Source: an uncultured Candidatus Saccharibacteria bacterium
GTDB taxonomy: Bacteria > Patescibacteriota > Saccharimonadia > Saccharimonadales > JAUPVS01
Length of the DNA: 64,000 bases
Reading direction: 5' to 3'
NCBI GenBank assembly: GCA_964410185.1
Contig: CAYPFM010000002.1
Location: 6,047 to 70,046 of the forward strand
Shown here: piece by piece, positions 33,755 to 57,910 of the stretch
Numbering within the stretch: the stretch's first letter is position 1
Layout: each line of letters opens with the position of its first letter
Position numbers and translations under genes: made by a program
The notes under the pieces: generated by a model
What the model saw: the letters and a program-made list of their open reading frames with translations, nothing else
What the model was told of the DNA's origin: nothing
Databases searched by the model: none

Positions 33755-33824
33755 GGATGATGTCATGAGAAACAGATTGAAATTAACCATAAGAAGTAAG
33801 ATACTGTAAGGGTCAGGGTTCACC

Positions 33825-35135: not shown

Positions 35136-35146
35136 TTCAGTCGTAC

Positions 35147-35194
35147 CTTCTTGCAACGGCTTCGGCCTGGCGGCCTGCAGATGCAGATAAGAAG
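35147..35194 (+). repeat. Conserved-core hairpin repeat, copy R3
   Basis: CTTCTT..GCAACGGCTTCGGCCTGGCGGCCTGCAGATGCAG..AAGAAG, starting 12 nt after the stop of the 436-aa gene. Confidence 0.75.
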
Positions 35195-35239
35195 TCATAA
35201 GCCTACAGATTTCTTTAAAAAAGTGGTAGCATAAGGGGA

Positions 35240-35503
35240 ATGAAAGCAGTTATTTTATATCACCCCAATTCTGAGCATGCCCGGATTGTCGAGGAGTACG
35301 TCCACAACTTTTCGCTCGGCAACAGCCACAAGATTGATCTCATGAGTTTGGAGACGCGCGAAGGCGCAGCCGAGGCAACATTGTACGACATTGTAAGTTA
35401 CCCAGCTTTGATGATAATAGACGAGTCTGGCCGTTTACAAAAAGTTTGGCAGGGCTCGACCATGCCGCTCATGAACGAAGTCGCCGGCTATCTTGTCGCT
35501 TAA
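35240..35503 (+). CDS. Small hypothetical protein (87 aa), possibly thioredoxin-fold without CxxC
   Basis: MKAVILYHPNSEHARIVEEY...YPALMIIDESGRLQKVWQG shows a beta-alpha-beta pattern. There are no cysteines. Confidence 0.5.
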   Translation: MKAVILYHPNSEHARIVEEYVHNFSLGNSHKIDLMSLETREGAAEATLYDIVSYPALMIIDESGRLQKVWQGSTMPLMNEVAGYLVA

Positions 35504-35521
35504 GCCGTTCTAAGCTATACT
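35493..35521 (+). promoter_or_regulatory. Promoter of the ileS leader
   Basis: TTGTCG-N17-TATACT overlaps the end of the upstream small CDS. Confidence 0.55.
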
Positions 35522-35527
35522 AACCCC

Positions 35528-35764
35528 TGTAGCAATACACCCACAATTTGGTAAATCCCTTGGAGCGGCCATCAACCGCAATCTCTTATACAGAGAAGGG
35601 AGTGGAAAGAACGGCAAGCCTGCCAACTAGACTCCACCGGCAAATGCCCGTCACAGCAATAATTAAGCGCTAAAAGAATCATTTCTTTTGGAAATCAGAT
35701 GGAACCATCCGCACGCATACAGCAACGCGGATTCTGATAACCGGAAAGAAATGATTTTTTCTTT
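35528..35764 (+). promoter_or_regulatory. T-box-like leader RNA upstream of ileS
   Basis: The hairpin GCGG-CCAUCAA-CCGC (35565-35579) displays AUC (Ile codon) followed by A. The antiterminator-like element is AUCAGA-[UGGAACC bulge]-AUCCGC...GCGGAU-UCUGAU (35694-35738). An outer 12-bp helix pairs 35677-88 with 35745-56, and a U-run follows at 35757-64. Confidence 0.55.
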
Positions 35765-35785
35765 ATAAACCCAGAAGGAGACAAG

Positions 35786-38731
35786 ATGAAGTTCAAACAA
35801 GGCAGTCGCCGCAAAGCCCTCGAATACGAAAAGGACTTGGTGCAGTATTGGAAACAAAATCAGACTTTTGAAAAGTCGGTGAACAACCGGCCTAAGTCCA
35901 ATGCATACATTTTTTATGACGGCCCACCATTTATCACTGGCGTGCCACATCATGGGAATTTGCTGTGCACGATTATCAAAGACGCCGTGCCACGCTACTG
36001 GACCATGAAAGGCAAGCACGTCGAACGAACCTGGGGTTGGGACTGCCACGGACTGCCGGCCGAAGTCTTTACCGAAAAGAAGCTGGGTATTCACGACCGC
36101 CGCGACATCGGCACCAAGATTAGCCTCGAAGAATACATTACCACCTGCCGCGACAACATGGTGCAGACCGGTGACCTCTGGGAAAACACCATCGACCGGA
36201 TTGGTCGCTGGGTCGACTTTAAGGGCTCCTACAAAACCATGGACAAAGACTACATGGAATCAGTCTGGTGGGCCTTTAAGCAACTCTACGAAAAAGGCAA
36301 GATCTACGAAGGTGAGCGGGTGCTGATGTACTGTACCCGCGACGCCACGCCGATTAGTAAGGCTGAAGTCGCCATGGACAATAGCTATCAAGACGTCACC
36401 GATCCATCGGTCTACGTCAAGTTCAAGTTAGCTGACCGTGATGCCTACTTGCTCGCTTGGACGACCACGCCGTGGACATTGCCGTCCAACAGCGCGATTG
36501 CCGTCAATAAGGACCTCGAATATGCCGAAGTTGAGCTAGAAGGGGAGCATTTCATCCTGGCCAAGGACTTGCTCGACAAGGCTCTGACGGACGAAAAACA
36601 TCAGGTATTGAACTATAAAGTTGTTCAAACTTTCAAGGGCGAACAATTAATTGGGCAGGCCTATCTACCCCTGTTTAAAGAGCATAAAGAGCTGGCCAAG
36701 CAGGGTGCCTTTAAGGTCTATCACGCCGACTTTGTCCATGCCGAAGACGGCACCGGCATCGCCCACGAATCGCCAGCCTATGGCGAGGAAGACTATCTTT
36801 TGAGCAAACAAGCGCGGTTCCCGATGATTCTGAATACTGACGACAGCGGCTTATATACGGAAGGCGAATGGAAGGGCCAACTGGTCTGGGATGCGAACAA
36901 GACAATTGCCAAAACCTTGCACGAGCGCGGGGATGTTTGGAAGATCGACTACATCACCCACAGCTATCCGCACTGCCACCGTTGTGGCACCAAGCTGATG
37001 TACCGCGCTCACCCCAGCTGGTTCATGGACATTGATGGTCAGCGTACCGAAATGCTCGAACAAAACGGCGACGTCAACTGGTTCCCAAGCCACATCAAAG
37101 ACGGTCGCTTCGCCAAAACCGTCCAGTCGGCACCAGACTGGAACCTCAGCCGCGACCGCTTCTGGGCCACCGCCATGCCAGTTTGGAAGGGCACCGACAA
37201 AGACGGCAAAGAACACATCAAAGTTGTTGGCAGCTACGCCGAGTTAAAAGAGTTATCCGGCGTCGAACTTGACGACTACCACCGCCCGTGGGTCGACGAC
37301 ATCACCTTTAAAATCGACGGTGTGGTTTACCAGCGCATCGATAAGGTCTTGGACTGCTGGTTCGAAAGCGGCTCTATGCCATTTGCCCAGTTCCACTATC
37401 CGTTCGAGAACGTCCAAAAGTTCGAAGAAAATTTCCCGGGCGACTTCGTGGTCGAGTACGTCGGCCAGGTGCGCGCTTGGTTCTACTATATGCACGCCGT
37501 CAGCGTGGGCTTGTTTGGCAAAAGTGCCTTCAAGAACGTGGTCGTGACCGGCTCGGTTATGGGCACCGACGGCAAGAAGCTGAGCAAGTCGCTCGGCAAC
37601 TACACTGACCCGAACGAGGTCATGGACCAATACAGCTCCGATGCCCTGCGTTTTGTGCTGCTCAGCGCGCCACTATTAAACGGCGAAGACTTCACCCTCA
37701 AAGATAAAGAAGTGGCTGACGTAAACCGCAAGTTGGCCATGATCTGGAACATGTACGACTTCTTTACATTGTATGCCGACGTTGACGGCTGGGCCTGGGA
37801 CGGCTCCTTGTCCGACCCAACCGAAGACCTGGAAAATCCGTTGGATCAATGGATTGTCTCGCGTGTGCACCAGCTATCGACCGTGGTTGACGAACACATG
37901 CAGAAGTACGACATTCCAAACGCCATGAAACCATTGCTAGAATTCGTCGACGACGCCAGCAACTGGTACGTCCGCCGCAGTCGCAAACGCTTCTGGAAGA
38001 GCGACAACGACGGCGACAAGCAAGCTGCCTACCGCACCCTGCATTACGTCCTGGTGCAAACTTCTATGATTTTCGCGCCGTTCACACCGTTCCTATCCGA
38101 AGAACTGTATCGCTCGCTGACTGGCGGTGAATCGGTCCACCTGCTCGACTGGCCAGAGGCCGGTCACATCAATGAGCTACTGGTTCGCAACATGCGCTTG
38201 CTGCGCCATCTAATTACCATCGGTTTGAGCCTGCGTGCCGAGGCCGCTATTAAAGTGCGCCAGCCGTTGGCCAGCGTCACCTTGCAGGAAGGTTATCGCT
38301 CCTACTTAACCGACGACATGCTCGAGATTCTTAAAGAAGAATTAAATGTTAAGAAAGTGAAATTTGATGACAGTAAGTTCGATGCCGAAAAATCCTTTTT
38401 GGAAAACCTGGAAGCCGGCAACTTTAGTCAGCTGCATCGCCTCGAACTAGATACGGCCTTAACTCCAGCGCTGCGCCAAGAAGGCTTGATGCGCGAAGTC
38501 GTGCGCCAGGTCCAAAACGCTCGCAAGCAAGCTGACTTGCAGGTGGACGACCGAATCGAACTGAGTTTGGAAACCGCCGACGCTGACTTGGCTGCGGCAA
38601 TCACCAAACACGCCGACGAAATTGTGGCCGAGACGCTGGCTGTTAAATTAGTGAAACACGAACTTAAGCACGTCACGACCGCCAAGGTCGAAAGCGCTGT
38701 GCTGACGATTTCGCTACAAAAGTCTGCCTAG
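35786..38731 (+). CDS. ileS: Isoleucyl-tRNA synthetase (type 2-like)
   Basis: HIGH motif PHHGNLL, KMSKS motif KLSKSLGN, and a CP1 editing region with TTTPWTLPSN. Confidence 0.95.
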   Translation: MKFKQGSRRKALEYEKDLVQYWKQNQTFEKSVNNRPKSNAYIFYDGPPFITGVPHHGNLLCTIIKDAVPRYWTMKGKHVERTWGWDCHGLPAEVFTEKKLGIHDRRDIGTKISLEEYITTCRDNMVQTGDLWENTIDRIGRWVDFKGSYKTMDKDYMESVWWAFKQLYEKGKIYEGERVLMYCTRDATPISKAEVAMDNSYQDVTDPSVYVKFKLADRDAYLLAWTTTPWTLPSNSAIAVNKDLEYAEVELEGEHFILAKDLLDKALTDEKHQVLNYKVVQTFKGEQLIGQAYLPLFKEHKELAKQGAFKVYHADFVHAEDGTGIAHESPAYGEEDYLLSKQARFPMILNTDDSGLYTEGEWKGQLVWDANKTIAKTLHERGDVWKIDYITHSYPHCHRCGTKLMYRAHPSWFMDIDGQRTEMLEQNGDVNWFPSHIKDGRFAKTVQSAPDWNLSRDRFWATAMPVWKGTDKDGKEHIKVVGSYAELKELSGVELDDYHRPWVDDITFKIDGVVYQRIDKVLDCWFESGSMPFAQFHYPFENVQKFEENFPGDFVVEYVGQVRAWFYYMHAVSVGLFGKSAFKNVVVTGSVMGTDGKKLSKSLGNYTDPNEVMDQYSSDALRFVLLSAPLLNGEDFTLKDKEVADVNRKLAMIWNMYDFFTLYADVDGWAWDGSLSDPTEDLENPLDQWIVSRVHQLSTVVDEHMQKYDIPNAMKPLLEFVDDASNWYVRRSRKRFWKSDNDGDKQAAYRTLHYVLVQTSMIFAPFTPFLSEELYRSLTGGESVHLLDWPEAGHINELLVRNMRLLRHLITIGLSLRAEAAIKVRQPLASVTLQEGYRSYLTDDMLEILKEELNVKKVKFDDSKFDAEKSFLENLEAGNFSQLHRLELDTALTPALRQEGLMREVVRQVQNARKQADLQVDDRIELSLETADADLAAAITKHADEIVAETLAVKLVKHELKHVTTAKVESAVLTISLQKSA

Positions 38732-38742
38732 ACCTGTTTGCT

Positions 38743-38924
38743 GACCGGCGGTTTCGTGACATTACTTTTTGCTTGCTATGGTTTTTGGAGCACGAGTTAA
38801 CGAGTATTTAATGATTCAGATTAACTTATTTAAGAAAGGTGAGCTAGGATTATTAACATTTTTAATCTGAATTCTTACCTTTTGGTTAAACGGTGCTCCA
38901 AAAACCATAGCAGCACTGGAGGAG
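38743..38924 (+). mobile_element. MITE-like palindromic element, copy 2 (plus a ~20-bp flank shared with copy 3)
   Basis: Same TIRs and subterminal IRs. From 38755 to 38921 it is base-for-base the reverse complement of 47732-47898 (checked by hand). Confidence 0.75.
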
Positions 38925-38961
38925 CGGCGAACTAGCCGGCTTTAAACCGTCGGTCAAGGTG

Positions 38962-38990
38962 TTGACGGCGTGGGTCTAATCTGTTAATAT
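38962..38990 (+). promoter_or_regulatory. Promoter of rplU
   Basis: TTGACG-N17-TAATAT with a TGt extended -10. ATG 39003 would leave a ~6-nt leader. Confidence 0.6.
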
Positions 38991-39002
38991 CCTTTGGTAC
39001 CT

Positions 39003-39311
39003 ATGAAAAAAGCTGTCATTACAACTGGTGGACATCAATTCCTCGTAACCGAAGGCGAAACGCTGGAAGTCGAGCTGATGCATGCCGACAAAAAGTCGGT
39101 CAGTTTTGACGCACTCCTGGTTATTGATGGCGACAAGACCACTGTTGGTACGCCAACCGTGAAGGACGTTAAAGTCACCGCCGAAGTCCTTGCTGATGAT
39201 GTTGCGGGCACCAAAGTCACCGCCATCCGTTACAAGCCAAAGAAACGTGTGCACAAGGTGCATGGCCATCGCCAGCATCACACGCAAATCAAAATCACTA
39301 AGATTTCATAA
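39003..39311 (+). CDS. rplU: 50S ribosomal protein L21
   Basis: MKKAVITTGGHQFLVTEGETLEVE...VTAIRYKPKKRVHKVHGHRQHHTQIKI. ATG 39003 lies downstream of the predicted TSS. Confidence 0.9.
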   Translation: MKKAVITTGGHQFLVTEGETLEVELMHADKKSVSFDALLVIDGDKTTVGTPTVKDVKVTAEVLADDVAGTKVTAIRYKPKKRVHKVHGHRQHHTQIKITKIS

Positions 39312-39336
39312 AAGGCCTCGAGAAGAGGCCTTTTTA
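39311..39336 (+). terminator. Intrinsic terminator after rplU
   Basis: AAAGGCCTC-GAGAA-GAGGCCTTT followed by TT. Confidence 0.7.
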
Positions 39337-39368
39337 AATGGCCAACAATTTGCTAAGCTTATGTTTAG

Positions 39369-40130
39369 ATGTCAGAGGTAATCGCGATACTAAACCAAAA
39401 GGGGGGCGTGGGCAAAACAACCACGGCTATTAATTTGGCTGCCTACCTGCAGAAAATGGGGAAGTCGGTGTTGCTGGTTGACCTCGATCCGCAAGGCAAC
39501 GCCACCAGCGGCCTCGGTCTCGACAAGCATAGCCAAGAGGGCGGCACCTACGAATTACTACTTGGGCAGATTGACCTTGGCCAAGCGGTCAAGCCGGTTC
39601 AGAATGGCGGCTTTTACATTGTGCCGACTAACGCCAATCTTGCCGCCGTTGAGGTGGAGCTGGTTAGTAAGCCGAACCGCGAGCAAGCCCTCAAGGACGC
39701 GCTCAAGCAGGCCACGTACGACTACATCCTAATTGATTGTCCGCCGGCGCTCAGCCTGCTCACTATCAACGCGCTGACGGCCGCGCACTACATGATTATT
39801 CCAGTCCAAGCCGAATACTATGCGCTCGAAGGACTTGGGCAGCTGTTGCAAGTCTTCCAACAGGTAAAGTCTAACCTCAACCCGGGCCTCGAAATTATGG
39901 GTGTGGTGGTGACCATGTTCGACAGCCGCACCAGCCTTTCGGAGCAGGTGTTAACAGAGGTCAAGAAGCATTTTAACGACAAGTTATTTACCACCATCAT
40001 CCCGCGCAATGTTCGGCTGGCGGAGGCACCGAGTTACGGTCAGCCGATTCTGCAACATGATAAATGGTCTAAGGGCGCTCGCGCCTATAAACAGCTTGCC
40101 AAGGAGGTAGTAGACTATGGCCAAAAGTAA
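39369..40130 (+). CDS. parA: Chromosome partitioning ATPase ParA/Soj
   Basis: Deviant Walker A NQKGGVGKTTT, plus DLDPQGNAT and IDCPPAL. Confidence 0.9.
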   Translation: MSEVIAILNQKGGVGKTTTAINLAAYLQKMGKSVLLVDLDPQGNATSGLGLDKHSQEGGTYELLLGQIDLGQAVKPVQNGGFYIVPTNANLAAVEVELVSKPNREQALKDALKQATYDYILIDCPPALSLLTINALTAAHYMIIPVQAEYYALEGLGQLLQVFQQVKSNLNPGLEIMGVVVTMFDSRTSLSEQVLTEVKKHFNDKLFTTIIPRNVRLAEAPSYGQPILQHDKWSKGARAYKQLAKEVVDYGQK

Positions 40131-40977
40131 AGCCGGCCTCGGCCGCGGTTTTGAAACCCTGATTCCAACCAACTTTGACAATTCTTTGTTGCTCGACGAG
40201 CAAGACCGGATACAAAAGTTGCTCATCACTGACATTAAGCCGGGCAAACAACAGCCGCGAACCGAGTTTGACGAGACCTTGCTCAAAGAGCTAGCCAGTT
40301 CAATCAAGCAACACGGTATCTTGCAGCCACTGATTGTCCGCAACGAAAGTGGCACCTATTACATCGTGGCTGGCGAACGCCGCTGGCGAGCCGCCCAACT
40401 AGCGGGCCTTAAGCATGTGCCAGCGATTGTGCGCAGCCTTGAAGAGCTCGAAGAGTTGGAGATGGCCTTGGTCGAAAACGTCCAACGCGAAGATCTGTCA
40501 CCACTCGATCAGGCGATGTCGATCCACCGGTTACTCCACCAGTTTAATTTGTCGCAAGAGGCAGTCGCTAACCGGCTGGGTAAAGCTGTGCCAACCGTTG
40601 GTAACATCGTGCGTTTGCTAAACCTGCCGCCCAAGGCCCAGGAAGCTTTGCGGGATGGCTTGATTACCGAGGGTCACGCTCGCGCCGTCTTAGCCCTTAA
40701 GGATAAGCCCGAAAAACAGACCGAACTACTCGAGCTGATTATTAAGAACAAGTGGACGGTGCGCCAGGCCGAACAATTTGTGGTGGCGACTCGTAAGGGC
40801 GCCCAAACCGAAGTCGCTCACAAACAGTTGGCTACCACCACGCCAGCGACCGAAAAACTCGGCAAGAAGCTCGGCACGCCCGTCACGATTCGACGAACCG
40901 CAAAGGGCGGGAAGCTCGAAATTGCTTTCAAGACCAACAAAGAACTAGACGATCTAATCAAAACCCTGAATAAGTAG
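40117..40977 (+). CDS. parB: Chromosome partitioning protein ParB/Spo0J
   Basis: ParB box GERRWRAA, LQPLIVR, and an HTH. Overlaps parA by 14 bp. Confidence 0.9.
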   Translation: MAKSKAGLGRGFETLIPTNFDNSLLLDEQDRIQKLLITDIKPGKQQPRTEFDETLLKELASSIKQHGILQPLIVRNESGTYYIVAGERRWRAAQLAGLKHVPAIVRSLEELEELEMALVENVQREDLSPLDQAMSIHRLLHQFNLSQEAVANRLGKAVPTVGNIVRLLNLPPKAQEALRDGLITEGHARAVLALKDKPEKQTELLELIIKNKWTVRQAEQFVVATRKGAQTEVAHKQLATTTPATEKLGKKLGTPVTIRRTAKGGKLEIAFKTNKELDDLIKTLNK

Positions 40978-40979
40978 CT

Positions 40980-41672
40980 TTAGAAACGTTCGGCTTTGTT
41001 GAACGGATAGACGCGGAGGCCCAGACGGCCAACGATATTGCCGGCCGGAACGGTGCCAAAGTAGCGTGAATCGAGTGAATTGCTGCGGTTATCGCCACAG
41101 ACGAAGACTTCGCCAGGAGGCACCGTCAGGTCAACGTCGCCAATTGTTTCGGTGATAACTTTGCCGTAGTCCATGGTTTTGTCCGGAGAGAAGCCCTCGG
41201 GGTGTTCTTGGTTGTAGACGGTCAGCTGGCCATCTTTGACGACGACGCGCTCACCCGGCAAGGCAATGACGCGCTTGATCAGCTGCTTTTCGGCTTCGCC
41301 GAGGCCAGAGCTATCGGGGTGATTGAAGATGATAATTTCGCCCCGTGGTGGAATGTAGGCATGATGCGTAATGCGGGCGATGGTGCGAGGAACTTTGACT
41401 ACAATCAGACGGTCGCGGTTTTGCAGGGTAGTCTGCATGCTGGGACCGTCAACTTCGTAGGACTGGAACACAAAAGCCGTTAAGAGCAGGGCAATTGCGG
41501 GAGCTAAGGCCAAGAGGATAATCGTTGAGATAACCCCTTTAATGCCTTCCTTTTCGGCGACTCGTGGTTCTGGAGGCTCAACCGGCTCGACCGGACTGAC
41601 TGGCGCTGGCTGGACAGGGTGACCAGGGGTTGGCGTCGGCTGCACGGGGTTAGGAGTTATGTCATCATTCAT
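40980..41672 (-). CDS. lepB: Signal peptidase I
   Basis: N-terminal TM, catalytic SMQTTL (Ser box), RGEIIIF, KRVIALPGE (Lys box) and GDNRSNSLDSR. Confidence 0.88.
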   Translation of the reverse strand: MNDDITPNPVQPTPTPGHPVQPAPVSPVEPVEPPEPRVAEKEGIKGVISTIILLALAPAIALLLTAFVFQSYEVDGPSMQTTLQNRDRLIVVKVPRTIARITHHAYIPPRGEIIIFNHPDSSGLGEAEKQLIKRVIALPGERVVVKDGQLTVYNQEHPEGFSPDKTMDYGKVITETIGDVDLTVPPGEVFVCGDNRSNSLDSRYFGTVPAGNIVGRLGLRVYPFNKAERF

Positions 41673-41714
41673 TACAGGTTTTCACTATACGCTAAAAGAA
41701 CCAAAAGGCATATG

Positions 41715-41743
41715 TTTACGGCGGCCGACTAAACCGCTATACT
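41715..41743 (+). promoter_or_regulatory. Promoter of the LCP gene
   Basis: TTTACG-N17-TATACT. The ATG lies 13 nt downstream. Confidence 0.5.
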
Positions 41744-41756
41744 GAGACCCACCCGT

Positions 41757-43379
41757 ATGGATAATTTTAGACGACCCCCGCGTACAAAACGAGGCTTCGC
41801 CGTAGACGGCATTCTTAAATCTCCCAAAACTCCTGCTTCTGGGGTTGGTGACTTCAAACGGCGACCAATCACCACCACCTCTACCAAGCAAACAGTTGGG
41901 AACTTTAAGCAGACAGAAGGCTTCAAAGCCACTGTCCAGCCCTCGGTGCCTGTTTCGGTATCCCGCAAAACCCCTAAAGTAGCCAGCGAACCGCCGGTTA
42001 AAAAGAAGCGTGGACTCTTCCATCGACGCAAAAAAGACAAACTCCATAAGCCCGTCCATCGCTGGCGGACCCTTGTTAAGCGAACGGCTATTATTTTATT
42101 TGTCCTGATGTTTGTTGGGGGCGGTTTGGTAGGCGCCAAGGCCTACATGAAGTCCCGCAAGGTCCTTAAGGGAGGTGGTTCAGCCCCATCTTTGCAGGCC
42201 AATGTTGCCCCAGCCTTGCTCAAAGGCGAAGGCGACGGCCGTATTAATATTCTGCTACTTGGACGAGGTGGTGCCGGCCACGATGGACCTGATTTAACAG
42301 ATACGATTATTGTGGCTAGTGTCGACCCGGTTCACCACGAAGCCGCTCTGATGAGCATCCCGCGCGACCTTTGGATCAAACCGACCGGTGGCTATAGTTA
42401 CACCAAGATTAACTCCATATATGCGAATGCTAAATATGCCGTCCAGAATGGTAAAAAGATTCCGAACCAACAGCAGGCCGCCGATCAGGCAGGTGAGGAC
42501 GCTATCGAAAAGACCATCGAAGATACATTCGGTATCCCGATTCACTATCACGTCATTGTCGACTTCGAGGCCTTCCGCAAAGCCATCGACACGGTTGGCG
42601 GCGTTGATATTAATGTCAAAACAGCCTTAGTTGATCCAACTGTTGCTTGGGAAAATAACTGGAAGGCCACCATCGCGCCAGTTGGCCAAAACCATATGAA
42701 CGGCAAAACAGCCTTGCTCTATGCTCGTTCTCGTCATGGTAGTGCCCGTGGTGACTTTGACCGGAGTGAACGCCAACGCGAGATTATGATTGCTCTCAAG
42801 GAAAAGGTCTTTACCCTCGGTACCTTCAGTAACCCCGTTAAAATTTCGCAGCTACTGGACGCCTTTGGCGACCACGTGCAAACAAACTTTGGCAGCAGCG
42901 AAGTGAAGCGCCTATACGCCATCGCCAAAGATATTCCGTCTGCCAAAGTCACGTCAGTAGGTTTGGCCGATCCGCCGAATGACTACATCACGACGGGAAT
43001 GGTGAATGGGCAGTCGGTGGTGATTCCAAAGGCTGGCATCGGCAATTATGACGCGATTAAGAGTTACGTACGCAACACCCTCAAGGATAGCTACCTACGT
43101 GATGAGAATGCGAGCATCGTTATTCTAAATGGAACCAATAAGCCCGGCTTGGCAACCACGCGGGCCACCGAGCTGAAGTCATTTGGCTACAATGTTACGA
43201 CGGTCGGCGATGCTCCAACCAAAACCTACACCCAGACGCTGCTTATTGATAGGCGAAGCGGTGCCAAGAAGTATACCCAGCACTACTTAGAGAATCGCTT
43301 GGGAGTCAAAGCCACCACGGCACTTCCAGCTGGTGTTGACGCCGGCACGGCCGATTTTGTGATAGTATTAGGACAATAA
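41757..43379 (+). CDS. LCP (LytR-CpsA-Psr) family cell-envelope phosphotransferase with C-terminal LytR_C domain
   Basis: Basic N-terminus plus a TM. LCP core is INILLLGRGG..PDLTDTIIVASVD..SIPRDLW..RSRHGS..GDFDRSERQ. C-terminus is IVILNGTNKPGLA. Confidence 0.85.
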   Translation: MDNFRRPPRTKRGFAVDGILKSPKTPASGVGDFKRRPITTTSTKQTVGNFKQTEGFKATVQPSVPVSVSRKTPKVASEPPVKKKRGLFHRRKKDKLHKPVHRWRTLVKRTAIILFVLMFVGGGLVGAKAYMKSRKVLKGGGSAPSLQANVAPALLKGEGDGRINILLLGRGGAGHDGPDLTDTIIVASVDPVHHEAALMSIPRDLWIKPTGGYSYTKINSIYANAKYAVQNGKKIPNQQQAADQAGEDAIEKTIEDTFGIPIHYHVIVDFEAFRKAIDTVGGVDINVKTALVDPTVAWENNWKATIAPVGQNHMNGKTALLYARSRHGSARGDFDRSERQREIMIALKEKVFTLGTFSNPVKISQLLDAFGDHVQTNFGSSEVKRLYAIAKDIPSAKVTSVGLADPPNDYITTGMVNGQSVVIPKAGIGNYDAIKSYVRNTLKDSYLRDENASIVILNGTNKPGLATTRATELKSFGYNVTTVGDAPTKTYTQTLLIDRRSGAKKYTQHYLENRLGVKATTALPAGVDAGTADFVIVLGQ

Positions 43380-44149
43380 TGAAGGTTCTACCCACGCGTA
43401 TTAAGAAGTTAAAGCCCAAAAAGGGCTTGGCCAGCGTCTTCCATTTAATTTTGACCCTGCTGCTGCCAATTTTGGTGTACGTTCTGGTGGCCATGCACTT
43501 CGCTTTGGCGGCCGTGGCCCTTATCCTACTCAGTAAATGGCGCATGTTCGCTGTTAAGCCGCGCCACTGGCCGGCCAACATTCGGGCCAATGCCATTGAT
43601 ATCATCGTCGGCTTGTCACTGGTGGTCTTTATGATGACCGCACAGCAGGCCGGTTCACAACTGTTCCAGATGTTCTGGGCGGCCATGTACGCCGTTTGGC
43701 TGCTGTTCATCAAACCTGGTTCACAAGTTATCTCGGTTTCAGTCCAGGCCTTAATCGGCCAATTCCTCGGGCTAACCGCCTTATTTGTGCGCTTTGGTGG
43801 GGTTGACCCAGCCTTTCTGGTTTTGGCGTCGTGGGGCGTCTGCTATCTCGCGGCTCGACACTTCTTAGCCAGCTTTGACGAGCCGCTGACCAGATTCTTT
43901 TCGTATCTTTGGGGCTACTTTGGGGCCACCACGGTTTGGATTCTCAGCCACTATTTGTTGTCGCGCGGTGCCTTCTTCCAGCCGGTCCTGCTGATTAATG
44001 TGATTAGCTTTGGCTTAGCAACGCTGTACTACCTCCAAGAGACTGATCGGCTGTCACGATTCTATCAGCGGCAGATTACTTTTATTGTTTTGTCAGTGGT
44101 GGTGATTCTGGTAATTTTGCCGTTTGTCCTGTGGGACAAAACCATCTAG
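43379..44149 (+). CDS. Hypothetical polytopic membrane protein (256 aa)
   Basis: Six to eight hydrophobic helices. Its start overlaps the LCP stop (TAATGA). No family recognised. Confidence 0.6.
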   Translation: MKVLPTRIKKLKPKKGLASVFHLILTLLLPILVYVLVAMHFALAAVALILLSKWRMFAVKPRHWPANIRANAIDIIVGLSLVVFMMTAQQAGSQLFQMFWAAMYAVWLLFIKPGSQVISVSVQALIGQFLGLTALFVRFGGVDPAFLVLASWGVCYLAARHFLASFDEPLTRFFSYLWGYFGATTVWILSHYLLSRGAFFQPVLLINVISFGLATLYYLQETDRLSRFYQRQITFIVLSVVVILVILPFVLWDKTI

Positions 44150-44209
44150 TTGACCAACATTCTCATTCCATTCTCAGATTGAAATGATAAAACAGAGGAG
44201 ACAAACTAA

Positions 44210-45379
44210 GTGAAAGAACCAGACATGAAAGCGCCTCAAACCCCCCAACTGACTACGACTGTGCGACGCCTGCCTTTTGTGGGTGTTATTGCCATCCTTT
44301 TGCTGGGCACAACCAGTGGCTTCTTGGGCGGTTGGTATGGTGCCCGCCACGGTTTTAATGACATGAGCACTGCCAACCAAAAGCAAGTCATTTCTTCGGA
44401 GAGTAATTTGATTAGCCAAATCGCCAAAGACGTTGGTCCTAGTGTCGTCTCGGTTAACGTGACGGGCGAAACGGCTCAGACGCGCTTTCGGGCTGGTGGC
44501 ACCCAAGAAAGTGCCGGGACTGGCTTTATCGTGAGCAGTAACGTCATCATTACCAACCGCCACGTGGTGCCCGCCGGTACCACCAACGTTGATGTGGTGC
44601 TGGCTGACGGTACGCAGCTGGACGACGTCACCATCTTGGGCCGCACGAGCGCAAGTGATCCGCTGGACGTGGCCTTCCTAAAAGTCAACGACACCAAGGG
44701 GAAGACGCTCAAGCCAGCCAAGCTGGGTGATTCAACCAAAATGCAGATTGGTGATAAAGTCGTGGCAATTGGCAATGCGCTCGGTCAGTTCCAGAACACT
44801 GTGACGTCAGGCATTATCTCTGGCTACGGGCGTGATTTGGAAGCCGGCGACGGCAGTAGTGGCAGCACCGAACAGCTCCAGGACTTATTCCAAACCGATG
44901 CGGCCATTAACCAGGGTAACTCGGGTGGTCCATTGGTGAACATCAATGGTGAGGTGATTGGCATTAATACCGCCGTGGCTGGCGATGCTCAGAACATTGG
45001 CTTCTCAATTCCAATTAATGATGTCAGCGGCCTCATCAAGGGTGTGTTGGCCACCGGCAAGCTAGAACGACCATACCTGGGTGTGCACTATGTCTCGATT
45101 ACTGACGACTACGCTGTTGCCAATGGCCTACCGGTTAAACGGGGCGCCTACATTCAGCCGGGTGAAGCTGGCATCGTCGCCGGCAGCCCAGCCGCTATAG
45201 CCGGCTTAAAGGGTGGTGACATTATCACCAAAGTGAACGAAGTAAACGTTGACGAAACCCACAGCTTATCAACGCTACTGGGCCGCTATGGCGTCAGTCA
45301 AAAGGTGACCCTGACAGTGGTTCGTGACGGCAAAACGCAAACAATCACAGCCGTGCTTGACGCCGCGCCACAAGCTTAA
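44210..45379 (+). CDS. htrA: HtrA/DegP-family serine protease with PDZ domain
   Basis: Catalytic triad contexts TNRHVV, DVAFLKV and GNSGGPL, plus a PDZ (GSPAAIAGLKGGDII). AGAGGAG Shine-Dalgarno lies 9 nt before GTG 44210; ATG 44225 is an alternative. Confidence 0.88.
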   Translation: MKEPDMKAPQTPQLTTTVRRLPFVGVIAILLLGTTSGFLGGWYGARHGFNDMSTANQKQVISSESNLISQIAKDVGPSVVSVNVTGETAQTRFRAGGTQESAGTGFIVSSNVIITNRHVVPAGTTNVDVVLADGTQLDDVTILGRTSASDPLDVAFLKVNDTKGKTLKPAKLGDSTKMQIGDKVVAIGNALGQFQNTVTSGIISGYGRDLEAGDGSSGSTEQLQDLFQTDAAINQGNSGGPLVNINGEVIGINTAVAGDAQNIGFSIPINDVSGLIKGVLATGKLERPYLGVHYVSITDDYAVANGLPVKRGAYIQPGEAGIVAGSPAAIAGLKGGDIITKVNEVNVDETHSLSTLLGRYGVSQKVTLTVVRDGKTQTITAVLDAAPQA

Positions 45380-46179
45380 TTACTGAATACTTGAATAAAG
45401 TCCTGGCCGTCCTGGAGTGTATAGCCATGTGTACGCGCCAGTTGGGCGAGATAATGGTGCTGGGCAGGTAGGGCTTCTGTAAGGATGTAGCCACGATGCT
45501 TAATCGTTTTGAGTTGCTCAAACAAACGCCGATACAGATCGAGGCCGTCCGGGCCAGCGAATAAGGCTACAGCTGGCTCATTGGTAGCGGCTTGGTTGAG
45601 CGCATATCCATCTGGCACATAGGGAAGATTGGCGAGAATTGTTGCATCAGCGGGCGACGTCAGGCCTTCCAGGAGGTCGGCTTCTTGCAGGTCGACGGTG
45701 GCTTGATGCTTGACGCAGTTATCACGAGCGACCTTTAAGGCGGCGGGGCTAATGTCGGTGGCGAGCACCTGGACCGCGCCCAGCTCGCAAGCCACAGTGA
45801 TAGCGATAGCGCCGGAGCCAGTACCGACGTCAACCACTGTTCTTTGGGCTGTTTTGGGCAGCTTCAAAAACAGCTCAATCATGGCTTCGGTCTCGGGGCG
45901 GGGCACTAAAACAGACTCATTAACAAAAAATTCGCGGCCATAGAACTCGGCTTTACCGCGGATATAAGCCAGCGGTTGGTGTTGTTTGCGCCGTTCAATA
46001 GCGGCAGTGAGTTGAGCGAGTTGTTCGTTGCTCAACAGTAGGTCTGGCTCGGCCAAAACCTGAGCACTATTTTTATTCAATAAATCTGCCAAAAGCACAA
46101 GGGCATCCAGGCGGGCGGTTTGAATGTTGGCATCTTGGAGTTGTTGGGTGGTCGCCTGGAGCCAGTCGTTAACCGTCAT
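45376..46179 (-). CDS. prmC: Release-factor glutamine N5-methyltransferase PrmC/HemK
   Basis: SAM motif [10 protein letters not shown] and catalytic NLPYV (NPPY variant). Translationally coupled to prfA by an 11-bp overlap. Confidence 0.88.
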
Positions 46180-47227
46180 GGCTAATCAGCTCACGCTCAT
46201 AGCTCTGTAGCTTTTCGATCAAGTCATCGATTTCGCCACTCAGCGCGCCTGGAATGTTACTGCGGCTGTAGCCAATCCGGTGGTCGGTAATGCGGTCTTG
46301 TGGGAAGTTATAAGTGCGAATCTTCTCGGAGCGATCACCAGAACCAATTAACTTCTTGCGCGAGTCAGACAGAACCTTTTGTTCTTCTTCCAACTTCTGG
46401 GCTAACAGGCGGGAACGGAGCACGCTCATGGCCTTGGCCTTGTTCTTGATTTGCGACTTTTCATCCTGGTTGCTGACCACTAAACCAGAGGGCAGGTGGG
46501 TAATCCGAACAGCCGAGTCAGTGGTGTTAACCGATTGGCCGCCGTGGCCACCGGAACGATAGACATCGATGCGCAGGTCATTGGGGTTAATTTCGATGTC
46601 CGATTCTTCGGCCTCCGGCAAGACGGCCACAGTCACAGTGGAGGTATGAATCCGACCCTGACTTTCGGTGGCAGGCACCCGCTGGACGCGGTGGACGCCG
46701 GCTTCGAACTTAAACGTGCGGTAGGCCTCCAGGCCACGAATGGCGAAAATAATTTCTTTAAAACCGCCAGCCTCACTAGGGCTTTCGTTAAGCAACTCCA
46801 GCTTGTAGCTGTGGTTCTCGGCAAAGCGAGCGTACATGCGATAGAGTTCACCGGCAAACAAAGCCGCCTCATCGCCACCGGCTGCCGCGCGGATTTCGAT
46901 AATGCAGTCACGCTCATCGTTGGGGTCTTTGGGCGTCAGGGCTTCTTCTAGAGCGGCATCAACCTCATTGAGGATGGCCTTAAGGTCGCGTAGCTCGGTG
47001 GCCACCATCTCCGCCATTTCCGGGTCGCTGCTAACGTCCATCTCTTCGGCCTGAACTTGGGCAATGCGAGCAGCCGACCGCTTATCAAACAGCGCCAACA
47101 AGCCCTCGAGCTGGCTCTGACGGCGGGCTAGTTTGGGGTAGCTGGGATCACTAAAAATACTTGGATCTTGCAGCTGCTTTTGCAGCGCTTCGTATTCTTG
47201 GCGTAAACTGGCTTCTTTTTCTTCCAT
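46169..47227 (-). CDS. prfA: Peptide chain release factor 1
   Basis: GGQ motif [10 protein letters not shown] and an RF1-type PAT tripeptide ([10 protein letters not shown]). Confidence 0.95.
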
Positions 47228-47242
47228 AATTCAGTCCTTAGT

Positions 47243-47281
47243 ATAAACAAAAACCGCCCGTTCTGTACGAAAAGGCGGTTT
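47243..47281 (-). terminator. Intrinsic terminator after rpmE (upstream of prfA)
   Basis: The minus-strand RNA reads AAACCGCC-UUUUCGUACAGAACG-GGCGGUUU followed by UUGUUU. Confidence 0.65.
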
Positions 47282-47296
47282 AACGAGCTTAGGTAG

Positions 47297-47653
47297 TTAT
47301 TTGTCAGCAGTTGCTGGCGCAGCTTTGGCTTCGACTTCTTCTTCGTCGTCGTCAGTCTTGCGGACGCGAACCTTGGCCGCAGCCTTCTTGCGTGCGTCCA
47401 AAGCCTTTTGGGCTGCAGCAGCGCGGTTCTTGAACTTATCAACGCGACCTTCGATGTCAACGATACGTTCTTCACCAGTGAAGAAGGGGTGGGACGAGCT
47501 GCTAATGTGCACCTTTACCAATGGGTATTCAACGCCATCGAGGGTGGTGGTTTCGTCAGTCTCGACCGTTGAACGGGTCAAATACTTGGTACCGTTGTTC
47601 AGGTCCTCAAAGACGACCTGGCGGTAATTGGTGGGGTGTAAATCTTTTTTCAT
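47297..47653 (-). CDS. rpmE: 50S ribosomal protein L31, type B (no Zn-binding Cys) with charged C-terminal extension
   Basis: [15 protein letters not shown]...HPFFTGEE. There is no CxxC. A ~40-aa tail is rich in K, A, D and E. Confidence 0.88.
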
Positions 47654-47731
47654 AGTCAGGTGGCAATTATACACATCTGTTAGCGTTTGGTCAACAGGGG
47701 AGCGGAAGTTTTAAAACATTGTGCCAGCCTA

Positions 47732-47901
47732 GCTATGGTTTTTGGAGCACCGTTTAACCAAAAGGTAAGAATTCAGATTAAAAATGTTAATAATCCTAGC
47801 TCACCTTTCTTAAATAAGTTAATCTGAATCATTAAATACTCGTTAACTCGTGCTCCAAAAACCATAGCAAGCAAAAAGTAATGTCACGAAGCCGCTGCCG
47901 G
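47732..47901 (-). mobile_element. MITE-like palindromic element, copy 3 (an inverted, identical twin of copy 2)
   Basis: Its reverse complement reads GTGACATTACTTTTTGCTTGCTATGGTTTTTGGAGCACGAGTTAACGAGTATTTAATGATTCAGATTAA..., identical to copy 2. Confidence 0.75.
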
Positions 47902-47902
47902 C

Positions 47903-47931
47903 TTGGCAAACACTGCTCAATCTGTTACACT
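47903..47931 (+). promoter_or_regulatory. Promoter of rpsB-tsf
   Basis: TTGGCA-N17-TACACT with a TGt extended -10, leaving a ~110-nt leader before ATG 48047. Confidence 0.6.
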
Positions 47932-48046
47932 AGGTGAGTAATAAATTAAAGCAGTCTGGGATTCAGATCCTCCAACGCATAACCTGCCTCCAGGTGGCCG
48001 CGGCACCCAGATGAAGATCAAGGATCAAAAGAAAGGTTATAACACT

Positions 48047-48826
48047 ATGGCTACAACAGATGTAGACATCAAACAACTATTAGAAGCCGGCGCGCATTTT
48101 GGCCACAAAAGCAGTCGCTGGCACCCTAAGATGGCGCCGTATATTCACAGCAAGCGCAACGGTAGCCACATCATCGATCTGACTAAGACGGTGACTGAGC
48201 TCGAAAAGGCGCTTAAGTTCATCCAGCAAACCGCCCAGGATGGCAAGCAAGTTTTGTTTGTCGGTACCAAGCGACAGGCCAAGGACATTCTTAAGACCGC
48301 AGCCGTCGACACCAACATGCCATACGTTACCGAACGTTGGCTCGGTGGCATGATGACCAACAAAGCCACTATTGGCGGTCGTATCAAGCACCTCAAGGAC
48401 CTCGAATCACGCATGGAATCTGGCGCCCTGGCTGCCAAGTACAACAAGCTCGAAGTTCAGCGCTTCCAAGAAGAAATCGACGAAATGAACCACAACTACA
48501 GTGGTGTTAAAGAAATGTCGCCAAAGCCCGGTGCTTTGTTCATCGTTGACATTATCCAAGAAGATAACGCTGTTAAAGAGGCTCGTACCCTGGGCATTCC
48601 AATCGTTGCTATTGTTGACACTAACACCGACCCAACCTTGATTGACTATCCAATTCCTGCCAACGATGATGCTATCAAGACCATCCAGCTTATTACCGAC
48701 TACGTCGTTGCTGCCATCAAGGCCGGCAAAGCCAAGGCTAAGCCTGCTAAGGACGAAGCTGACAAAGACGAAAAAGCTGCCGAACGCGTTGTTTTGGGAG
48801 TAGAAACACCTAAGGAGGAAAAATAA
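48047..48826 (+). CDS. rpsB: 30S ribosomal protein S2
   Basis: LLEAGAHFGHKSSRWHPKM..FVGTKRQA..ERWLGGMMTN. ATG 48047 is preferred over the ORF-track start 48011. Confidence 0.93.
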   Translation: MATTDVDIKQLLEAGAHFGHKSSRWHPKMAPYIHSKRNGSHIIDLTKTVTELEKALKFIQQTAQDGKQVLFVGTKRQAKDILKTAAVDTNMPYVTERWLGGMMTNKATIGGRIKHLKDLESRMESGALAAKYNKLEVQRFQEEIDEMNHNYSGVKEMSPKPGALFIVDIIQEDNAVKEARTLGIPIVAIVDTNTDPTLIDYPIPANDDAIKTIQLITDYVVAAIKAGKAKAKPAKDEADKDEKAAERVVLGVETPKEEK

Positions 48827-48828
48827 CC

Positions 48829-49425
48829 ATGGCCGTATCAATCGAAGACATTAAGCGACTTAAGAATCTAACTGGTGTTGGTTTGACTGACGCCAAGGCT
48901 GCTCTCGACGCTGAAAATGGTGATTTTGACAAAGCCCTGGCTGCCATGCGCAAAAAAGGCCTGACCAAGGCCGAGAAGCGTGGTGAGCGCGAAGCCCGCG
49001 CCGGATTGATCGGTAACTACAACCACGATGGCCGCATCGGCGTCTTGGTAGAAGTAAACTGCGAAACCGACTTTGTGGCCCGCAACGAAATCTTCGTCGA
49101 CTTCGTTAAGGACGTGGCCATGCACATCGCGGCTTCTTCGCCGCAGTATGTCAGCATGGAAGACATTCCAGCCGAAGACCGCGACAAAGCTGCTAAAGAA
49201 TTTACCGAGAAGGCCAAGGCCGAAGGTAAGCCAGACAACATGCTCGACAAAATTGTTGACGGCATGCTCAAGAAGCACTTTGCCGAAAAGTGTCTGCTCG
49301 ACCAGCCCTTTGTAAAGAATCCCGACGTCACCGTTGGTGATTTCGTCAAAGAACACAATGCCAAGTTGGGTGAAAACATCGTAGTGCGCCGCTTTAACCG
49401 CATGGCGCTCGGCGAAATCAGCTAG
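48829..49425 (+). CDS. tsf: Elongation factor Ts (short form)
   Basis: UBA-like N-terminus IKRLKNLTGVGLTDAKAAL, plus VEVNCETDFVARNE. Confidence 0.92.
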   Translation: MAVSIEDIKRLKNLTGVGLTDAKAALDAENGDFDKALAAMRKKGLTKAEKRGEREARAGLIGNYNHDGRIGVLVEVNCETDFVARNEIFVDFVKDVAMHIAASSPQYVSMEDIPAEDRDKAAKEFTEKAKAEGKPDNMLDKIVDGMLKKHFAEKCLLDQPFVKNPDVTVGDFVKEHNAKLGENIVVRRFNRMALGEIS

Positions 49426-49500
49426 TTTTTGAACATAGCCTCGTACTACGTCCTCGCCCCTTACGGGCTGCGGATGTAGTACTCACCTATATTCAAAAAC
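49425..49500 (+). repeat. Long imperfect hairpin after tsf, related to R4 in its outer arm but with a different apex
   Basis: GTTTTTGAA.ATAGCCTC...GTACTAC..GCCC-CTTAC-GGGC..GTAGTAC...TTCAAAAAC. The 5' arm resembles the R4 arm GGTTTTGAGGCGTAGCCTC. Confidence 0.6.
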
Positions 49501-49512
49501 CGTAATACCCGT

Positions 49513-49518
49513 TAGAAT
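49513..49518 (+). promoter_or_regulatory. -10 element placed for a leaderless frr mRNA
   Basis: TAGAAT-AAAAGC-ATG (N6). The spacer is the same as at msrA. Confidence 0.45.
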
Positions 49519-49524
49519 AAAAGC

Positions 49525-50088
49525 ATGAATCCAAACGATGTTATCACGCAAGCCAAGTCCAAGTTCAACGCTACAGTTACACACTTCGAAGAAGAGTTAA
49601 AGAAATTAAGAACCGGCCGTGCTCACGGCGGAATGCTCGACAATATTACGGTTGAGGCCTACGGCACGCCAATGCCAATGAATCAGGTGGCCAACGTCAC
49701 CGCTCCCGAAGCGCAGTTATTGCAAGTGACGCCGTTTGACCCCTCAAACTTAGCCGCCATTAGCGCCGCTATTCGCGACAACCAAAGTTTGGGCATGAAT
49801 CCGAGCGATGATGGTCATGTCATCCGCATCTCCGTGCCCGCACTAACCGAGGAGCGCCGCCGCGAAATTACCAAGCAGGTTGGCAGTAAGCTCGAAGAGT
49901 GCATGATTGCCTTGCGGGGCACCCGTCACGAAACCCTCGACATGTTCAACCAAGCCAAAAAGGATAAAGATTTAGGTGAAGACGAAGTCAAGCGTTTGAA
50001 CGCTCAGGTCGAAGACGCCATGGGGCAGGCTAAGGCCAAGGCAGAAGCCGCCGCCAAAGCTAAAGAACACGAAATAATGACTGTCTAG
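49525..50088 (+). CDS. frr: Ribosome recycling factor
   Basis: LKKLRTGRAHGGMLDNITVEAYG..IRISVPALTEERRRE. Confidence 0.93.
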   Translation: MNPNDVITQAKSKFNATVTHFEEELKKLRTGRAHGGMLDNITVEAYGTPMPMNQVANVTAPEAQLLQVTPFDPSNLAAISAAIRDNQSLGMNPSDDGHVIRISVPALTEERRREITKQVGSKLEECMIALRGTRHETLDMFNQAKKDKDLGEDEVKRLNAQVEDAMGQAKAKAEAAAKAKEHEIMTV

Positions 50089-50090
50089 GC

Positions 50091-50783
50091 ATGTCAAACA
50101 CCGCAGAGATTCTACCAAATCACCTCGGCATTATCATGGATGGTAATCGACGTTGGGCCAAGCAACAGGGCTTGCCAACGCTCAAGGGTCATCGCCAGGG
50201 TCTGGAGGTCTTTAAAGACATCTCGTTGGCGGCATTCGAACGCGGCATTAAGTATGTGTCAGCCTATGTTTTTTCGAGCGAAAATTGGCAACGGACCGAA
50301 GATGAGGTGTCGTACCTGATGAGTCTAGTTAATAAGGGTATCGCCAAGCACCTGGATAGCTTTCATCAGGCCGGCATTAAGTTGGTGATGCTCGGCGCGC
50401 GTAGTGGTATCGATGACAAAATCCTCGAGACCATCGATGCGGCAATCGTCAAAACCAAAAATAATCTTAAGGGCACCTTGGCACTTTGTTTCAATTATGG
50501 TGGGCACGACGAGATTGCCCAGGCTGCTCAGACCTTGCTTGATAACGGCGAAACTACCATTACAGCGGCAAAGCTCGAGACAGCCCTTTATGCTCCTGAT
50601 GTACCGCCCGTCGATCTGATTATTCGTACTTCAGGTGAGCAGCGCTTGAGTGGTTTTATGCTGTGGCGTGCGGCCTACAGCGAGCTATATTTTACCGAAA
50701 CCTTCTGGCCGGCCTTTACGATCGCCGATTTGGACCTGGCTCTTAACGAATACGCCTGTCGGCAACGAAGGTTTGGTAGCTAG
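50091..50783 (+). CDS. uppS: Isoprenyl transferase (undecaprenyl-diphosphate synthase family)
   Basis: HLGIIMDGNRRWA, FSSENWQR and IRTSGEQRLSGFMLW. Confidence 0.92.
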   Translation: MSNTAEILPNHLGIIMDGNRRWAKQQGLPTLKGHRQGLEVFKDISLAAFERGIKYVSAYVFSSENWQRTEDEVSYLMSLVNKGIAKHLDSFHQAGIKLVMLGARSGIDDKILETIDAAIVKTKNNLKGTLALCFNYGGHDEIAQAAQTLLDNGETTITAAKLETALYAPDVPPVDLIIRTSGEQRLSGFMLWRAAYSELYFTETFWPAFTIADLDLALNEYACRQRRFGS

Positions 50784-57868: not shown

Positions 57869-57910
57869 ACGTCAACGGAACTGTTGTGTTGAAATCGTAA
57901 CGTGGCTAAT

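Follow-up and report, generated by a model that had tools for sequence, protein, structure and literature searches.

A 64,000-nucleotide stretch of DNA from an uncultured Candidatus Saccharibacteria bacterium (contig CAYPFM010000002.1, positions 6,047 to 70,046; hereafter the window) carries two identical palindromic repeats in opposite orientation, one on either side of an 8.8-kb block of core genes that includes parAB. Such an arrangement raises the question of whether the block inverts by recombination between the repeats and, if it does not, why the repeats are identical. The pair was pointed out in a first-pass annotation made from the sequence alone, which also proposed that the block could be inverted. 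Our analysis suggests that the repeats belong to a lineage-specific family of polar intergenic palindromes (~150 to 190 bp), that two members of this family, copies 2 and 3, were homogenized non-reciprocally, and that the pair is probably a by-product of this process and not an inversion device.

An exhaustive scan for exact matches revealed that the longest perfect inverted match in the window is 159 bp, formed by positions 38753–38911 of the plus strand and the reverse complement of 47732–47890. A repeat finder reported inverted arms at 38748–38911 and 47732–47895 (164 nt, 99% complementary) with a spacing of 8,820 nt. Chance falls far short of explaining 159 bp of perfect inverted identity in 64 kb. 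The first-pass headline, arms of ~160 bp around an 8.8-kb block, is thus correct (159 bp exact, with 8,820 bp between the arms), while the accompanying statement that 38755–38921 is the exact reverse complement of 47732–47898 (167 bp) identified the right pair but misplaced two of the ends by 8 to 10 bp. On the outer side, i.e., toward the ileS stop and toward rpsB, similarity goes on as far as 38745 and 47901, interrupted by one mismatch and an indel of 3 nt, in line with the earlier claim that it runs through an indel to about 38743 and 47901. Differences inside the shared unit are confined to its outermost 8 to 11 nt, and the likeness of the outer flanks decays beyond it. The likeness score of the 30-nt outer flanks of copies 2 and 3 was reached by only 37 of 2000 shuffled sequences. 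The outer extension of copy 3 ends exactly at the start of a flank (TTTGCCAAG) shared with a contig of a relative, L023 (L numbers denote the contigs compared with the window).

The two repeats are members of a family with four copies in the window, located at 6385–6545, 38766–38920, 47729–47876, and 58698–58840 (copies 1 to 4). Each is an imperfect palindrome of ~150 nt, with a core of 125 to 140 bp and a whole unit of up to ~190 bp. Copies 1, 2, and 4 are 80 to 83% identical in pairwise comparisons, whereas copies 2 and 3 are 100% identical; most of the differences in copies 1 and 4 are central, as had been noted previously. The terminal arms, GCTATGGTTTTTGGAGCAC and GTGCTCCAAAAACCATAGC, are 19 bp long and perfect in all four copies. 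Inward of these arms lie more paired stretches, two internal loops that are T-rich on the plus strand, and a variable centre. Left and right arms differ in a way that is constant over all four copies, and therefore the element has polarity. Profile scores, which amount to 138 to 162 bits in one sense and 74 to 90 bits in the other, assign plus polarity to copies 1, 2 (153.6 versus 74.9 bits), and 4 and minus polarity to copy 3 (148.4 versus 73.6 bits). While the first-pass annotation was right that the pair is real, it overlooked both the polar palindromic nature of the repeats and their turnover in place between species, described below.

The elements fold into long hairpins: copy 2 as RNA yields −52.5 kcal/mol (z = −8.1), and the copies as DNA have z of −9 to −13. 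Seven of the 49 predicted base pairs are changed on both sides with pairing kept, a count that comes from four sequences only. A weak, diverged relative of the family, an AT-rich palindrome with a nested 14-bp hairpin, was detected at 14285–14433 between a gene for a 1375–amino acid (aa) sensor kinase–like protein and ftsZ. The motif TTCAGATTAA occurs nine times in the window, each time inside one of these elements, compared to 0.1 occurrences expected by chance. Only spurious overlapping open reading frames (ORFs) are present in the elements, and no promoter was predicted inside any family copy. The whole window has no hit in Rfam 15 at gathering thresholds, so a described RNA family was rejected as an identity for the elements; permissive thresholds returned only hairpin models of plant and insect microRNA precursors at 18 to 31 bits against thresholds of 100 to 230, i.e., noise. 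A blastn comparison of the elements with phages and plasmids gave no match. A scan with the 19-nt arm produced three single matches among GTDB species representatives and six single matches among JGI contigs, all chance-like and none of them a paired element, which indicates that the source genome and its repeat family are not in these two collections. A stretch of the left extension, GTTTCGTGACA, was also considered as a possible parS target of the block's own ParB and rejected; TGTTTCACGTGAAACA has no match at up to three mismatches throughout the window.

In related species, the corresponding intergenic positions are occupied by an element of like footprint (within ~15 nt; 181 versus 167 nt, 214 versus 199 nt, and 207 versus 210 nt at three orthologous spacers) but of only about 53 to 64% identity, compared to 73 to 94% in the flanks. 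The species represented by L005 and L032 has arms GCTATG-TGCGGC-GGAGCA in the ileS-rplU spacer and GCTATG-TCCCGT-GGAGCA in the rpsU-yqeY spacer; a hexamer has been replaced, and in the ileS-rplU copy the replacement is fully compensated in the opposite arm. The two elements share 72% identity with each other and 52 to 59% with the window copies at the same positions. Their polarity was ambiguous (0.57 versus 0.56 identity in the two senses) and was not used. In L023, which is ~81% identical to the window overall, the rpsB-rpmE spacer contains a family member with arms ACTATG-TAGTTT-GGAGCG that is 74 to 76% identical to the window copies. It has a footprint of 210 nt, versus 207 nt in the window, and its polarity is opposite to that of copy 3. 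Given the opposite polarity and the 3-nt difference in footprint, an element replaced or flipped where it stood is a better fit than one newly inserted.

At the block-end sites, L018 and L019 have unrelated palindromes, and no such element is present upstream of rpmE in L025 to L029. The rpsU-yqeY spacer is 256 to 266 nt long and filled with an element in the window and in L032 to L039, the element orthologous to copy 1 being diverged in L032 to L038. In the distant L030 (3216–3316) and L031 (1306–1405), where the RpsU protein is identical to that of the window, this spacer is empty and 100 nt long. The empty spacers are too diverged to be aligned with the filled sites, and so no insertion boundary or target duplication can be defined from them. 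Contigs of several relatives end within or beside palindromic elements (position 1 of L002, L004, and L018 and the end of L034), which shows that the elements are repeated there too and fragment short-read assemblies of the clade. Overall, the conserved positions, the replaced sequences, and the greater likeness within a genome than between species indicate that the family turns over in place between species, apparently including a change of polarity at one site. Either gene conversion among the copies (concerted evolution) or repeated, highly site-specific reinsertion could be the cause of this turnover.

The orientation of the block can be read wherever a contig crosses one of its junctions. 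All five junction-spanning contigs have the present configuration: ileS-element-rplU in L001, L005, and L006 and rpsB-element-rpmE in L016 and L023. Longer contigs of relatives (~69 to 82% nucleotide identity) keep both the order and the orientation of the block; L018 reads ileS-rplU…rpmE, L019 and L020 have rplU…rpmE next to rpsB, and in L024 rpsB is followed by an extra ORF and rpmE. The orientation is unchanged in five of the five related lineages in which either junction is readable, and no inverted junction or inverted block was found among assembled contigs of the species (two samples) and its relatives. A comparison of block orientation with relatives, put forward together with the proposal of inversion, thus brought no inverted form to light (L018, L019/L020, L023, and L024 are as in the window). 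GC skew shows no discontinuity at the block edges, its signal being weak everywhere. Inversion would put six instead of four of the block genes on the minority strand. The orientation found in the window is ancestral and is probably also the favored one.

Both ends of the block are synteny breakpoints in some lineages, and the breakpoints coincide with the positions of the repeats. In L019 (17467–17898 and 11517–11804), a 143-aa gene replaces ileS beside rplU, LCP is lacking, and there is an additional ORF of 95 aa. An unrelated co-directional gene precedes rpmE in L025 and L026 (1–290), and an unrelated divergent gene is found there in L027 to L029 (1–340); in all five, homology with the window stops at 47700–47708. 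L024 (8912–9820) contains an extra 302-aa ORF ahead of rpmE.

The repeat pair is not peculiar to the assembly of the window. JGI contig Ga0489980_0003098 (L001) is 100% identical to window positions 32457–45220 and crosses copy 2 with kilobases on either side, while JGI contig Ga0489980_0025918 (L016) is 99.97% identical to 47182–50262 and crosses copy 3. The only mismatch of the latter is at 48293, within rpsB; no record with the exact sequence of the window RpsB was found, the JGI copy being one base different. The two are separately recovered contigs of a single JGI metagenome, possibly the window’s own sample. Both copies recur in them with unique flanks, which speaks against the assembly artifact that the first-pass annotation wished to exclude. 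In a second sample (SRR12404947), Logan contigs L003 and L017 start exactly 30 nt within the inner repeat end, as follows from the behavior of a k = 31 assembly graph at a repeat boundary. Since short-read assemblers can merge near-identical copies, the “perfect” identity could conceal a few true differences.

Why, then, are copies 2 and 3 identical? They are alike through the centre while other members of the family differ by 17 to 20%, so a recent duplication or gene conversion, the two causes offered by the first-pass annotation, is the right class of explanation. We favor the view that the 159-bp identity reflects the latest non-reciprocal copying event, with gene conversion as the probable mechanism, for several reasons. 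The rpsB-rpmE site already had a family member of nearly equal footprint, the shared tract reaches 22 to 30 nt past the left terminal repeat, and differences in the shared unit occur only at its outer edge, as at the edge of a conversion tract. In addition, copy 3 is located between the divergent rpmE and rpsB promoters and upstream of both predicted sites; transcription of it is therefore not expected, and selection at the RNA level does not explain the perfect identity. Lastly, no transposase is encoded in the window. Under this scenario, older family members in opposite orientation and 8.8 kb apart would have been present at both sites before the event, and RecA-type gene conversion would have copied sequence one way between them, making copies 2 and 3 identical. 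A palindrome with perfect 19-bp terminal arms, i.e., with the same 19-mer on both strands at both ends, could pair in either register, which might also account for a polarity that differs between species at one site. Over evolutionary time, family members would be replaced or homogenized in place.

Several observations weigh against this interpretation. On the inner side, identity breaks off sharply at …CCATAGC, the terminal CATAGC of the palindrome, as would be expected of an end of the transposition type. The inner flanks of copies 2 and 3 are not significantly alike (their score was reached by 539 of 2000 shuffles), with no significant older homology there; significant likeness of these flanks would have decided the matter for gene conversion. 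Outside the 64-kb window, the genome could encode a transposase whose ends match the element or hold a third, identical master copy, and the greater likeness within than between genomes could also come from repeated site-specific insertion. Either copy may have been the donor, and either polarity may be the ancestral one at the rpsB-rpmE site. As for orientation, the evidence consists of assembled contigs, with the species itself represented by two samples, and a minority inverted form could exist.

Recurrent homologous recombination that inverts the block would keep the arms identical and maintain both orientations in the population. Plastid genomes provide a precedent: recombination between their inverted repeats inverts the segment and homogenizes the arms. 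The minimal homology for RecA-dependent recombination in E. coli is ~25 to 50 bp, and since 159 bp of perfect inverted homology is well above this length, inversion is mechanistically possible and could occur occasionally, though presumably rarely. The expectation of the first-pass annotation that homologous recombination would invert the 8.8-kb block therefore holds in principle, and it was also right that each transcription unit would be left whole: the rplU and rpmE promoters lie inside the segment, and the rpsB promoter-like site and the ileS stop (38731) lie outside. Moreover, in E. coli and Pseudomonas aeruginosa, the majority of large inversions are bordered by a pair of inverted repeats (PMC5372343), and both block ends are synteny breakpoints in relatives (L019 and L025 to L029). 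However, the alternative junctions are seen in none of the five junction-spanning contigs, every relative with a readable junction keeps the orientation relative to ileS or rpsB, skew is continuous at the block edges, the co-orientation of genes would worsen, and no recombinase is encoded nearby. All observed orientations are alike, so the part of the earlier proposal that implies actual inversion is unsupported, and we consider active flip-flop very unlikely. The same low credence applies to the stronger version, according to which the pair is both substrate and product of a flip-flop of the parAB block, the chromosome exists as two isomers, and the elements reshuffle blocks at these junctions across Saccharimonadales. 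Even less probable in our view is an assembly or polishing artifact in which two similar but non-identical family copies were collapsed into one consensus. The repeat does exceed typical short-read k-mers, assemblers can pop bubbles between near-identical copies, and the break of the SRR12404947 contigs 30 nt inside the inner repeat end is a pattern of an unresolved repeat. Yet the two JGI contigs agree in sequence at the two sites, each of them with unique flanks to the left and right, and the graph branch in the second sample falls exactly at the identical inner boundary. Copies at the usual family identity of 80 to 83% would have stayed unmerged, which leaves room for a few hidden differences at most, and copies 2 and 3 truly have peculiarities in common, among them TAATGATTCA and an identical centre.

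Transposition, with copy 3 (or 2) being a young insertion of a MITE, or miniature inverted-repeat transposable element, mobilized in trans by a transposase encoded elsewhere, is an unlikely explanation, but one that stays alive because identity ends so abruptly on the inner side, at the edge of the palindrome. In its build the element matches a MITE (it is non-coding, measures ~150 bp, occurs in several copies, and has perfect 19-bp terminal inverted repeats), its presence varies between lineages, as the empty 100-nt rpsU-yqeY spacers of the distant L030 and L031 demonstrate, and the breaks of relatives’ assemblies point to repeated elements there as well. On the other hand, identity continues for 22 nt and similarity for ~30 nt past the left terminal repeat instead of stopping at the terminus, and no target-site duplication is recognizable. 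The rpsB-rpmE spacer of L023 is already filled by an element with a footprint within 3 nt, and so an insertion would have to replace an older copy precisely. There is also no transposase gene in the window, and neither the GTDB species representatives nor the JGI contig collection yielded a paired element with the 19-mer arm. We give hardly any credence to a selected function, i.e., a cis-regulatory RNA or protein-binding site for the ribosomal protein genes rplU and rpmE kept identical by purifying selection. Both identical copies are located 79 to 92 nt upstream of a ribosomal protein gene and share one sense with respect to that gene, compensatory changes accompany the conserved structure, and TTCAGATTAA is restricted to the elements. 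Against this, the elements lie upstream of the predicted promoters and hence outside the rplU and rpmE transcripts, copies 1 and 4 are beside unrelated genes and differ by 17 to 20%, and no Rfam match was obtained for the window. In relatives, polarity at the rpmE site is opposite in L023, the element upstream of rpmE is missing from L025 to L029, and L018 and L019 have unrelated palindromes at the block-end sites.

The family resembles MITE, ERIC, and Correia elements in being non-coding and residing beside housekeeping genes, here in fixed spacers. By analogy, its closest kin in structure and function appear to be the MITE-type palindromic repeats Correia, ERIC, RUP, and Nezha; the Correia elements (CREE/NEMIS) of Neisseria and other bacterial MITEs (RUP, Nezha) are listed in PMC3184786. 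Like these, the elements described here are non-coding, of a similar length (~100 to 170 bp), bounded by terminal inverted repeats, able to form long hairpins, present in many intergenic copies near genes, and associated with genome plasticity. Unlike them, they reside in Patescibacteria, have no known sequence relationship to the described families, come with no TA target duplication or cognate transposase in the window, are palindromic over nearly their whole length with conserved polarity, and occupy conserved spacers across species instead of variable places. The attributes of a MITE can be followed one by one: the size is under ~500 bp, coding content is lacking, terminal inverted repeats are present, there are four strong copies and one weak copy in 64 kb, and the rpsU-yqeY spacer provides presence and absence, although between species and not between strains. 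The ends show no consistent direct repeat; the empty sites, known from L030 and L031 only, are too diverged to reveal a target-site duplication. No cognate transposase was found in the window ORFs scanned or in the annotation of related contigs.

ERIC elements are likewise intergenic imperfect palindromes (~127 bp), often at orthologous positions, with a variable centre and internal indels. However, ERIC elements usually lie in transcribed regions, and their orthologous copies diverge like the flanks, whereas elements at orthologous sites here are much less conserved than the flanks (53 to 64% versus 73 to 94%) and copies within a genome are alike, a pattern that indicates replacement or concerted evolution. 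Chromosomal inversions by homologous recombination between inverted insertion sequences or rrn operons (PMC5372343) share with the present pair the identical inverted repeats around a segment and ends that are unchanged after inversion. In those cases the repeats are of kilobase scale and strains actually differ by the inversion, whereas the present repeat measures just 159 bp and the inverted block was not seen. Programmed invertible segments (the fim switch, Hin/Gin/Cin, and shufflons) also have inverted repeats around a DNA segment but rely on short recombinase-specific sites, an adjacent recombinase gene, and orientation-dependent expression, none of which is present. This class was rejected, given that there is no recombinase in or next to the block, a single orientation in the contigs compared, and promoters of rplU and rpmE that would move with their genes. 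REP/BIME elements (20 to 40 nt, often clustered, mobilized by RAYT) were rejected as well: the elements are four to five times longer and single, and no Y1-transposase domain was found in the window. A composite transposon does not fit either, as the cargo consists of the core genes rplU-parAB-lepB-LCP-htrA-prmC-prfA-rpmE, which are syntenic in relatives that have no identical pair.

The repeat pair thus looks like ordinary repeat dynamics and not like a switch; the strong reading of an invertible parAB block, which would matter more if true, is currently without support, and what exists is a tidy case of in-place homogenization. If the interpretation we prefer is true, its main value is descriptive, since it would add a repeat family not previously described in Saccharimonadales, bacteria with small streamlined genomes, whose copies stay in conserved spacers, change faster than their surroundings, can flip polarity, and are homogenized within a genome. 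A literature search combining Saccharibacteria or Patescibacteria with MITE, palindromic repeats, or inversion retrieved nothing relevant. In practice, the elements bear on metagenome assembly, as contigs of these organisms break at them, on synteny-based analyses, and on how reduced genomes still rearrange.

The features of the locus are collected in the table. Copy 2 occupies the space between the ileS stop and the rplU promoter, and copies 1 and 4 are each located downstream of an intrinsic terminator. Homology with relatives L002 and L004 to L006 begins at 38975, within the rplU promoter-like site. The block genes and their neighbors belong to housekeeping Pfam families or to no family, and the ORFs scanned or annotated over the 64-kb window yielded no domain of a transposase or site-specific recombinase; no transposase domain is annotated on the related contigs either. 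The window has 49 non-overlapping ORFs that are 90 aa or longer; 40 are on the plus strand, and four of the six long minus-strand ORFs that match annotated genes lie in this block. RpmE, at 118 aa, is unusually long; one homolog is named “type B 50S ribosomal protein L31” by its source, and homologs range from 102 to 155 aa, many of them aligned over only 60 to 65% of the query. The organisms named for these homologs place the window in Candidatus Saccharimonadales / Patescibacteria.

Table. Positions of the repeat copies, the bracketed block, its genes, and nearby promoter-like sites in the window.
Feature	Position	Strand	Details
Copy 1	6385–6545	+	Between rpsU terminator (6353–6374) and yqeY-like gene
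Weak, diverged relative	14285–14433		17-bp perfect terminal arms, TTCAGATTAA motif; profile E = 2e-5
Copy 2, outer imperfect extension	38745–38752	+	CCGGC---GGT; one mismatch and 3-nt deletion versus copy 3
Copy 2, exact 159-bp arm	38753–38911	+	22-nt left extension and whole palindrome core GCTATGGTTTTTGGAGCAC...GTGCTCCAAAAACCATAGC; exact-match scan, repeat finder
Bracketed block, 8,820 bp	38912–47731		ORF list; Pfam on L001, L018, and window
rplU promoter-like site	38962–38990	+	TTGACG-17-TAATAT, TG ahead of −10; inside segment
rplU	39003–39311	+	
parA	39369–40130	+	
parB	40117–40977	+	
lepB	40980–41672	−	
LCP-family gene	41757–43379	+	
256-aa protein of unknown type	43379–44149	+	
htrA	44210–45379	+	
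prmC	45376–46179	−	
prfA	46169–47227	−	
rpmE	47297–47653	−	
rpmE promoter-like site	47666–47694	−	TTGACC-17-TATAAT, 11/12 matches; inside segment; conserved in L019, L023, L025, L027
Copy 3, exact reverse complement of copy 2	47732–47890	−	Sole minus-polarity family copy in window
Copy 3, outer imperfect extension	47891–47901	−	CCGGCAGCGGC; abuts −35 hexamer of rpsB promoter-like site
rpsB promoter-like site	47903–47931	+	TTGGCA-17-TACACT; outside segment, adjoins repeat unit; conserved in L023, L019
Copy 4	58698–58840	+	Between terminator of DUF308 gene (58630–58653) and msrA

In this genome, palindromic spacers seem to be widespread. A MITE-like element at 57816–57966 represents another repeat family with no relation to the main one; its GC-rich 31-nt terminal arms (TGCGGCTTCGGCCTGGCGGCCTGCAGATGCA) are 97% complementary and 89 nt apart (DNA fold z = −9.2). 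Single arms matching this family are located at 3530–3579 and 35136–35185, both intergenic, and a motif resembling it is found in the ileS-rplU spacer of L018 at about 9080–9115. Nested intergenic inverted repeats occupy 3479–3643, and a hairpin with 36-nt arms is present between tsf and frr (49425–49500).

Two other genes of the window deserve mention. Two genes downstream of copy 4, a heliorhodopsin gene is located at 59394–60299 (Pfam PF18761, E = 1.5e-95). A single ORF of 4179 aa (21215–33754) is internally repetitive, with several families of repeats at periods of 147 and 369 nt, and bears in its 147-nt units a D-x-N-G-D-G-K-x-D–like motif; its product is probably a giant surface protein.

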